From positions 31,992,001 to 32,056,000 of the forward strand of contig JAGIQG010000026.1 of the NCBI GenBank assembly GCA_024679065.1: a stretch of DNA of 64,000 bases. The letters run 5' to 3'. The notes under the pieces are model-generated. The model ran no database searches. It saw only the letters and a list, made by a program, of their open reading frames with translations, and was not told the DNA's origin. This document shows, one piece after another, positions 883-19,676 of the stretch; the first letter of the stretch is position 1, and every line of letters starts with the position of its first letter. Both the position numbers and the translations under genes were made by a program. Source of the DNA: Sphyrna mokarran (Eukaryota).

Positions 883-3800
883 GTACAGCCTATGTAGAGC
901 AAGTATTTACTTGTCTAATCTGTCAGTAAAGCTGTTTCTAAGTAGAAGCATGTTAACAAAATTGCAATGCTAGTTTCAGTAATGATCAATTCTTGATCTT
1001 CCTAAGGTGTATAAGCTGACTAACTTCTACAAAATTGATTCTATTGGTAGCCCCACAATCTTCTGCCTGATTACAAAGACCAAAAACTACAACACAAGGA
1101 CAGGCCCTTTGTCCCTTCAAACATGCATAGACCATGCTGCCTGACTTAACTAAAAGCTTCTTTGCTTACAAGGACTGTATCCCTCTATTCACATCTTAAT
1201 CATATACTTGTCAAGATGCCCCTTTAAAAATTGTTAATATATCCACTTCCACTACCTCCCTGGCCCACCACATTTTTTAAAAAAAAATCTATCTTGTACA
1301 TCTCTCAACTTGCACCTTAAACCTATTTTCCCTAGTAACTGACCCTTCTGTTTCAAAAAGCTTGTGACTATCCACTCTGTCCATGCCCCTCATAGTCTTG
1401 TAGACTTCTATTAGGTCTCCCCTCAACCTCTGTTGCTCCAGAGAGAACAGACCAAGTTTCTCTAACCTCTAATCATAGCTAATGCTCTCTATACCTGGTA
1501 AATTTTTTTCAGTACCCTTTCCAAAGCCTCCACTCCCTTGTGGTAGTGTGGTGAATTGAACACCTATATTCCAAGTGTGGCTTAACTTGAGATCCTATAA
1601 AATGTCAACATGGCTTTCCAATTTTTAAACTCATAACCAGGCTGATTGAAGGCAAGAATGCTGTATGTCTTCTAGACAACTATCCTCTCCACCTGCATTG
1701 TCACTTTTGGTGATAATACCCTCCCTGTGTTTAAAGAAACAATAACTGCAGCTGTGTAACTCACTAAATTGTGTAATTGTCTTGGTAAGTTGGGACTGTT
1801 GGCAGTCAGTTGTTTTAACTATAGCAAGATCACTAGGAAGGTGGTATTTGAGTGCACTAGTAATCCAAGAAATATTCTGGAGACCTGAGTTTGAACCTTC
1901 CATGATAGATGGTAAAATGTCTGGAGTTAACACATCAGCTAGAGTCAGAAGTTTACAACATGGAAACAGACCATTCAGCCTAATTTGTCAATGCTGTCTT
2001 TTCAACTAAACTAGTCCCAATTGCCTGCATTTGGCCCATATCTCTATTCATGTGACTAAATGCTTTTAAAAGACAACTTTACCAACTACTACCTCTGGCA
2101 GTTTGCACACCCACCTGCCTCTGGTGGTGGGGAAGGGTGGAATTGCCCCTCTGAACCATCTTATCTCCCCTCACCTTAAACCTATGGCCACTAGTTTTAG
2201 TCTGCCCTATCTTTGGGGGGAAAAATGAACCTTGTCTATGCCCTGATTATCTTGGATCTCAAAGTCTCCTACGCTCTAGAGAAAAAAGTCCCAGCCTCTA
2301 TGACTCAAACCAAGTACCAGTAGTACATATCTCATGAACTTTTAGTTTTAATAATATCTTTCCTAATGGTTTTAAAACCTGTCTAGTTCACTAATGTCCT
2401 TTTAGGGAAGCAAACATGACATCCTGGTCTGCATGTAACTCCAGAACCACAGTAACATAATTGACTCTAAATGCCCTTGGAGATGGGTAATAAATACTGG
2501 CCAAGCCAGTGCTGTCCTTCCATGAATGCATTAAAAAGACTTGTTTGATGTCCTGCCTTGCTTTCAGAATTGAATAGTGGTGATTCATCCTTTTGCAAAA
2601 AGTTATTTTTCCAAGTGATAGCTGCTTTAAAAATCCTGGCTAGGTTTCTGCTAAATGGTGAAATCATTAACTCAAGCCGAAGTTAATTTTAACAACACTA
2701 TCTTTCAGAATGTGGTTGATAGAATGACAAATCTGCCACTTGTGAGCTCTGCATGTGAGCAAGTATCTGTTGCATATGTGAGCACCAAGGAGAGCTCTCC
2801 TGCTGTGAAGACCATCTGTGATATGGCCGAACAGGGAGTGAAGACTATCTCTACTGCAGTAGCTGCTGGTGCTAAACCAATTCTCGACAAGCTGGAACCT
2901 CAAAGTAAGATGAGTTGGGGTTTTGGAGATACAAGAATTGCTGTCCAAATATTGCACCACAAAGTAGTATAATGAGTGTGCAGTTGTTAATGACCACATT
3001 CTTTCCTAAACTCTAGAATGTTTCTAACTAAGCTACTGGACTGTTTTGAGAAATTTAGCTTTAACTACCTGGTCGTGACATTGCAACTGAGTAGACTGAC
3101 TTAATGGCCTGTCAATATTGTACACTTTTGTAAATGTTTCTTGAAGGATTTAATTTCGGGGTACATTTTGCTTAAATAAAGCAGACTGTTTGTTTAAAGT
3201 CACTAGTTCTTGACTCTAGATATTAAGTCAAGTGATACATGGGACAGCACTCTTGGCCAAACTGGTGCTAACCAGCATGGAAGACTATATTCCTTATTAA
3301 TCCAAGAGCAATCTATTAATAACATTGATTATATTCTACATTCAGTTGCAGCAGCTAATGAATATGCCTGCAAAGGTTTGGATAAGTTGGAGGAGAAACT
3401 TCCAATCCTTCATCAAGCTACAGATCAGGTTAGTGCATGATTCAACAGAGGGGAAAATACTGCTCCATAAGAGCTGAGTCAATCTCCCTTCACTATTTTG
3501 GCATCATTTGGGTAGATTTAACATTATTAATGTTAAATCAGCTCTTTTTGAATGGCAGTGCCCCTGGTGCCAAGACATCTTGGCTTCTAGTAAAAGATAA
3601 AAAACAGGTTCTAGATTTTGAATCTATGGCAATTGCTTAAGATGACAAGTGTTCTTAATTGAAGGGAAAGTAAACTTCTTGCCCTATTACAGGTACTTGC
3701 TGAAACCAAGGAGCTTGTGACATCTAAGATGACTGATGTTAAAGAAGCAGTGATGGAGGTTGTTGACACTACAACCACTGCAGTACAAGGCAACCTGGAG

Positions 3801-19384: not shown

Positions 19385-19676
19385 ACTTTCTTTTTGTTTT
19401 TATTCCTACTCAATCAAGTCCAATTCAGAGTCTGAACAAGGTGAGACATCCCTGATCCCTCACCTCCTATTTTGGGCTTGATCTACATGATCGAAGCCAG
19501 TTGGAGCAGGCATGGCTCCTCCTCCAAAACTTGTTCTCATTTGCATCTTAATCAAAGGGCCGAGATGCCGCTTTAAAAAATTGCTTCAAATGAAGCTGAA
19601 ATGTAACCTAATGATTTTAGCCAAGCATAGCACGTCAATACTCCACTTGATCTTAGCCAAAAGGCTGAGAAGCGAT
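19385..19676 (-). repeat. U2 snRNA-headed structured repeat / U2 chimeric retrocopy
   Basis: Minus 19676-19638 ATCGCTTCTCAGCCTTTTGGCTAAGATCAAGTGGAGTAT matches U2 nt 1-39 at 37/39; second U2-like unit at 19572-19475; A-rich end with AATAAA near 19385-19405. Confidence 0.75.

Follow-up and report, generated by a model that had tools for sequence, protein, structure and literature searches.

On its minus strand, the interval 19385..19676 of the window (the whole 64,000-nt stretch of Sphyrna mokarran DNA analysed here) is a decayed copy of a dispersed, non-coding retroposon of about 305 nt that is present in about 2,000 copies. Full-length copies of this element begin at U2 +1 and carry no U2 upstream flank. 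What is new is that copies also lie inside U2 sequences, at the insertion site of the retrotransposons Keno and Utopia, one of them (locus L092) in a genomic U2 unit that retains promoter and 3' flank. We consider it probable that the element is read from the U2 promoter of occupied genes and copied by a Keno-type Tx1 LINE.

An earlier note, made from the letters of the window, had held that this was not a simple U2 pseudogene but perhaps a U2-derived SINE or other non-autonomous element related to Keno or SINEU. The multicopy body, the TSDs and the copies at the Keno site in U2 all bear this out, and both the U2 head and the A-rich end with AATAAA that it described are present in the window copy. 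The Rfam U2 match in the window scores 43.3 bits (E 1.9e-6), which is below the gathering score of 46. The window copy belongs to the young clade and is 88.5% identical to its subfamily majority, and the 292-nt stretch folds with a z of -2.3. Its parts are as follows.

19638..19676, minus strand: U2 snRNA-derived head, nt 1-39, identical to the genome's own U2 gene at 37/39 positions and ending at the Keno/Utopia insertion site
19597..19637, minus strand: 5' body segment, the part of greatest divergence between old and young subfamilies
19583..19596, minus strand: small hairpin followed by a T-run, retained in 4/4 subfamily majorities
19543..19568, minus strand: second U2 stem-loop-I-like unit with an extended stem, assigned by its match to U2 nt 3-33 in the majority (27/30) and by its fold
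19489..19536, minus strand: module 1, 48 nt, a long hairpin that has its outer stem in common with module 2
19454..19483, minus strand: module 2, which spans 49 nt in the majority but has lost 19 nt in the window copy through a private deletion
19430..19447, minus strand: terminal hairpin, damaged in the window copy, with one U-A > U-G > C-G path among copies
19386..19429, minus strand: pentamer-repeat tail, AATAAA and A-rich end; the TSD score of 4 in the window copy is not convincing

The window holds another short U2 5' fragment at 248-276 on the minus strand (nt 6-31, 92%), which has no element body.

A single-copy body would have counted against the reading of the earlier note, and the body proved to be multicopy genome-wide: a first look returned 2385 candidates for the non-U2 part, 40 of which were scored. 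Two exact motifs gave 182 and 578 matches, with cross-presence in 3/30 and 8/30, and from these figures we estimate the young clade at ~1,800-2,200 copies. The old subfamilies have a different tail motif, so that they are additional to this estimate. Eighty copies had a mean identity of 92.3% to the majority, and the best of them reached 97.4%; like the other samples of copies used here, they were selected by similarity or exact motif rather than at random. The 305-nt reference has the makings of a retroposon family, being non-coding and polyA-tailed, with a fixed head junction, 5' truncations and subfamilies. After removal of six rows (four duplicates and two U2-embedded loci), 134 copies could be compared for their start: 117 begin inside U2 nt 1-37, 20 begin at nt 1 and 15 begin beyond nt 40. 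In the 26 copies starting at U2 nt 1-3, the 30 nt upstream agree with the U2 gene at only 3-11 positions. TSDs of ~6-20 bp adjoining both ends reached a score of at least 6 in 18/74 copies, compared with 2.7% of 1500 mismatched pairs (six rows having been removed from this sample as U2-embedded or broken); the other 56/74 had no TSD at that threshold. Tandem runs of element copies occur at L009, L084, L148, L160, L163, L172, L177 and L260, some with an intervening TSD. Words from the body stretch were found at shares of 0.44-0.60 in 14 sequencing runs from eight studies and at least six organisms, one of which may be the source sample. None of the listed runs with such words was identified as RNA; six that we guessed to be RNA had shares of 0.20-0.28 and are not used as evidence.

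Clustering of 116 copies gave two old groups, one of 9 copies (88.6% to its majority) and one of 14 (90.7%), and young groups at ~93%, with old and young parted by a single branch (support 100/99 in a 43-row tree). The two also differ where the head joins the body. Old copies leave U2 at nt 37 and young copies at nt 39/40, and the triplet at U2 38-40 is non-U2 in 18/23 old copies and U2-type in 50/84 young ones; this difference fits re-entry into a U2 gene. Deletions in module 2 were considered as a recurrent feature of the family and set aside, as they are unremarkable in motif-selected copies. Their apparent recurrence in the first 30 copies arose because the query itself has the deletion.

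At four loci (L051, L061, L065 and L092) the element is flanked by U2 on both sides, with U2 resuming at nt 38-42. These copies, a minority of the total, have the arrangement expected of Keno, that is, insertion at U2 nt 37-39 and continuation of U2 downstream. Indeed, the 3' flank of the element at U2 insertions is the Keno target quoted in PMC6136364, and PMC4640811 describes the U2 sequence 3' of Utopia as beginning at nt 39, with an identical 3' flank for Keno. L092 lies ~40 kb from the genome's U2 array (contig C949). Since it is homologous to U2 genes both in the promoter region and over ~600 nt downstream, it is a genomic U2 unit and not a retrocopy. The element within it is decayed (87% to the nearest majority, on a long branch), and another repeat sits in the promoter. 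Two further loci, L074 and L275, have the 5' junction only. L074, a U2-unit paralogue, retains the promoter, U2 nt 1-39 and ~15 nt of element body. At L275, nt 1-40 of the target U2 are followed by an element carrying its own head, and the head must therefore travel with the RNA. Insertion into U2 genes is thus established; transcription from the occupied genes is what we infer, since L092 is decayed with a repeat in its promoter and L074 has only ~15 nt of body. An intact source copy behind a U2 promoter was looked for in two promoter searches, which gave 8 and 15 matches, and among 14 new loci sharing an exact junction motif. Only decayed or partial cases came up, although searches of this kind overlook diverged units, as the first of them omitted L092.

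Among dispersed copies, 4/126 have a U2-like 3' flank (at least 8/10 positions), compared with 0.6% of 788 control A-runs. In two of these four the U2-like flank lies within the TSD, and so represents target sequence. With only 4/126 such flanks the site preference must be loose. The flanks that recur next to copies are U2, LINE tails and tails of the element itself.

The same U2 site is occupied in this genome by a Tx1-type LINE family (1939 candidates). A search for an A-run followed by U2 from nt 39 on gave five matches, three of them LINE tails and two of them copies of the element. Pieces of the LINE have RBD_ZCCHC3, zf-CCHC (zinc knuckle), RVT_1 and zf-RVT domains, and relatives of its protein have AP-endonuclease domains, one being named Transposon TX1. 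Among the 120 listed of 1257 protein matches, the nearest named relative is from a ray (76%), in keeping with a cartilaginous-fish host, and none is named Keno; the LINE is likely to be of Keno type, a name that we give it by target site and not by tree. Its 5' end was reached in 5 of 20 fetched regions, and all five begin with U2-containing heads: three are U2 5' pieces, and two have a U3-like piece before U2 nt 34-52. In L255 (2495-2565) and L261 (2425-2500; both in LINE orientation) a U3 snoRNA-like 5' piece is fused in this way to form a U3/U2 chimeric head; the Rfam U3 model matches it in L261 only, at 29 bits (E 0.006), which is below gathering. Separately, LINE insertions at L062, L063, L066, L260 and L265 leave U2 nt 39-57/58 between tandem copies, remnants that fit a TSD of ~20 bp such as PMC4640811 reports for reptile Utopia.

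LINE and element are also found side by side. The element lies at or within ~100 nt of the LINE tail at 2/30 LINE loci, and a LINE tail lies no more than 70 nt upstream of 6/130 element copies (one of these probably a loose match), against 21/8644 background windows. The two thus form head-to-tail trains much more often than chance would give, and in some trains a TSD separates them. Their sequences are different: the body of the element has no significant similarity to five long pieces of one LINE family (best E 1.9), and in 30 examined of the 578 motif matches no LINE with the element's 3' tail was found, all 30 being the element itself, with 0/30 of these tail-selected loci extending into an ORF. 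Because body and tail are unlike the LINE, we infer the partnership from shared sites only, and on these grounds a Keno-type Tx1 LINE is the likely copier of the element.

A head that runs from +1 to the insertion site is most simply accounted for if an occupied U2 gene is transcribed and the LINE then copies from the internal A-tract. The U2 gene has its Pol II promoter upstream and lacks an internal one (PMC4494074). The T-runs in head and body speak against Pol III, an argument also made for SINEU (PMC4494074). Nor does the element have the head of a classical Pol III SINE: at the window copy the head is U2, several T-runs are present and Rfam gave no match to tRNA, 5S or 7SL families. We favour a scheme in which the source copy would reside in a U2 gene, where Pol II would initiate at U2 +1 and produce a transcript comprising head, body, A-tract and probably the remaining U2. 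LINE proteins would bind the structured body and prime on the internal A-tract, and the cDNA would be inserted mostly at loosely specific sites and occasionally back into U2. Re-entry into a U2 gene would create a new source lineage with a fresh head, and dispersed copies, having no upstream promoter, would decay. A more specific form of this scheme, which we hold tentatively and judge somewhat less than even, makes the element a promoterless SINE that breeds in U2 genes. Each source would be an occupied U2 gene giving a chimeric snRNA-type transcript that extends to the 3' box, a Keno LINE would copy it from the internal A-tract, and re-entry at nt 37-40 would found each subfamily. If so, crocodilian SINEU and U2-headed LINEs would have obtained their heads in the same way, and the LINE protein would take the conserved hairpin modules as its recognition signal.

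The head could have been acquired differently. In the model that Kojima put forward for SINEU, one or a few template switches onto U2 snRNA would have supplied the head, transcription would depend on unrelated flanking promoters, and copies in U2 would be by-products of the target preference of the LINE. This mechanism has been proposed for crocodilian SINEU (PMC4494074), and template jumps do occur in this genome: at L061 a complete 5S rRNA copy (1960-2078, minus strand; 65.5 bits) abuts the U2 head of the element, probably through such a jump, and two LINE copies have the U3-like piece described above. The promoter and junction searches, which found no intact U2-embedded source, also speak for it. 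However, in every subfamily the head stops at nt 37-40, the insertion site, and not at varied points, the 26 full-length copies have no evident common 5' extension, and the element is present in genomic U2 units. We therefore think template switching unlikely.

We are equally doubtful that the body derives from a Keno LINE, older or unsampled, whose 5' and 3' ends were fused by internal deletion in the manner of R2 SIDEs, and is not that of a SINE in its own right. The SIDEs are a precedent (PMC3414825), and the insertion site is identical to that of Keno. Moreover, the 3' outer-stem octamer of the modules (GCTTGGAT) lies just after the head in 3/5 LINE 5' UTRs, two of which have both arms. 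Against this, the five long LINE pieces have no significant match to the body, the LINE tail is different and none of the 30 tail-selected loci continues into an ORF. This alternative concerns origin only and is compatible with transcription from the U2 promoter and with template switching alike. The 5' UTR motif, seen after the U2 head in L257, L259 and L265, resembles the outer stem of the modules and may be a shared RNA signal.

Returning to the RNA that the favoured scheme would have the LINE bind, all subfamily majorities share a core fold (z -4.5 to -4.9) made of the small hairpin, the extended U2 stem-I-like unit, the two related 48/49-nt modules and the terminal hairpin. Changes between majorities fall on 8/118 paired and 18/68 unpaired positions (p=3e-4), in a comparison of 26 columns across four majorities with a structure derived from one of them. 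In contrast, decay after insertion in the main group showed no avoidance of stems (6.1% at paired vs 5.7% at unpaired positions). Lineage changes that spare stems together with decay that is blind to structure suggest that the structure has been under selection in source copies only. Covariation of the hairpins, which the earlier note had proposed as a check and whose absence it had counted against its reading, did not emerge: the score was 0.089 compared with 0.088 for shuffled alignments and was reached in 213/500 shuffles, and the RNAalifold covariation term for 41 copies was -0.18 kcal/mol. The sole compensatory path seen was U-A/U-G/C-G in the terminal hairpin.

The earlier note had gone further and suggested that the body held a miniaturised U2-like RNA or might be a U2 mimic. 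One part of this is real. The second U2-like 5' unit (19568-19543) aligns in the family majority with U2 nt 3-33 at 27/30 positions with a one-base gap, 0/1000 shuffles equal its score, whether in the majority or in the window copy, and the unit is retained across subfamilies. The remainder did not hold up, and the mini-U2 reading was rejected. Only the window copy has the Sm-like run before the GGAG stem, the commonest 5-mer at that place being a form other than the T-run (61/116 copies). For the window copy and for one old subfamily, the top local alignment is the likeness to stem-loop III, yet this is matched by 204/1000 and 152/1000 shuffles, respectively. At 19498-19475, the hairpin comes from an alternative pairing of the two repeated modules, with a probability of 0.002 in the young majority. 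That at 19465-19439 is restricted to the window copy, where it results from the private 19-nt deletion and a private substitution, and is not a feature of the family. The layout of a functional U2, with branch-point pairing region, stem-loops II-IV and Sm site in order, is not found in the element, and the similarity of its body to U2 nt 41-191 is not above that of shuffles.

That the host uses the element as a functional miniature U2 or U2-mimic RNA is accordingly very improbable. The reality and conservation of the second stem-I-like unit, the good folding of the core and the weak stem-loop III likeness in an old subfamily would be in keeping with such a role. However, the majority has no Sm site, the second unit lacks a branch-point pairing region and the stem-loop III likeness is not significant. 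Furthermore, copies decay neutrally, covariation is absent and there is no conserved locus close to the majority.

By structural definition the element is a SINEU: 117/134 copies start in U2 nt 1-37, so that the 5' head is U1/U2-derived, and the copies constitute a short, non-coding, polyA-tailed multicopy unit rather than independent chimeras. We set it beside the crocodilian families by description and not by sequence. SINEU-1 of crocodilians, which is moved by Tx1-Mar, is likewise short (<500 nt) and polyA-tailed, with a U2-derived head and repeated U2 pieces; its 3' part resembles no LINE, it has internal T-runs, TSDs of ~10 bp and tandem insertions, and its partner is a Keno-related Tx1 element able to carry snRNA heads (all as described in PMC4494074). 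In that account SINEU is reported from crocodilians only, prefers Mariner-N4 and has no known promoter. In contrast, the shark element joins at the U2 insertion site, occurs inside U2 genes and belongs to a cartilaginous-fish genome. PMC5786205 and PMC4758252, in the portions available, merely cite SINEU. With Keno (Tx1 clade, AP endonuclease) and Utopia (RLE) the element shares the U2 site and the resumption of U2 at nt 38-40 after the A-tail (PMC4640811, PMC6136364). However, these are autonomous, coding elements of several kb, whereas ours is 0.3 kb, non-coding and mostly dispersed, and brings U2 nt 1-39 along. The ORF1 and AP-endonuclease/RT ORF2 of Keno are not present in the 0.3-kb element; it is the separate LINE family that has RT domains, and its relatives that have AP endonuclease. 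R2 SIDEs of Drosophila are similar in being non-autonomous, in lying at the site of a LINE in a multicopy RNA gene and in depending on transcription of the host gene (PMC3414825). They consist of fused LINE ends with a self-cleaving ribozyme and are confined to rDNA (PMC3414825), whereas our element retains the 5' part of the host RNA as its head and has spread genome-wide. The homology to LINE 5' and 3' ends that marks a SIDE was not found against five pieces of one LINE family (best E 1.9), and Rfam gave no ribozyme match in the window copy. In the literature compared, no U2-headed SINE is described from cartilaginous fish, nor any SINE at the Keno site; Repbase, Dfam, the SINEU supplement and Kojima and Fujiwara (2004) lay outside this comparison and may describe one.

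PMC4494074, which named the snRNA-headed SINEs, poses their transcription as an open question, because U1 and U2 have no internal promoter. A head ending at the LINE insertion site, together with copies in promoter-bearing U2 units, offers a concrete and testable answer for SINEU. The element would also add a second vertebrate lineage with snRNA-headed SINEs, and provides, for a Tx1 enzyme with site preference, a natural RNA template of 0.3 kb in which a few conserved hairpins are the candidate recognition signal.

Two other kinds of U2-related sequence were seen in this genome. At L270-L278 and L281 (contigs C1548, C771, C113, C927, C993, C882, C1 and C1104) there is a dispersed composite of U2 nt 39-186 of a second type, a spacer of ~220 nt and U2 from nt 1 to nt 39-58, followed in most cases by LINE fragments. 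In the spacer, 45 nt ahead of U2 +1, lies a motif resembling that of type-A promoters (3/7 at that distance), and the unit may carry its own snRNA promoter. Finally, many U2 pseudogenes (L037-L042, L051, L053 and L060) share an endpoint ~35-40 nt beyond the mature 3' end, past the 3' box, as if a read-through precursor had been retrocopied.
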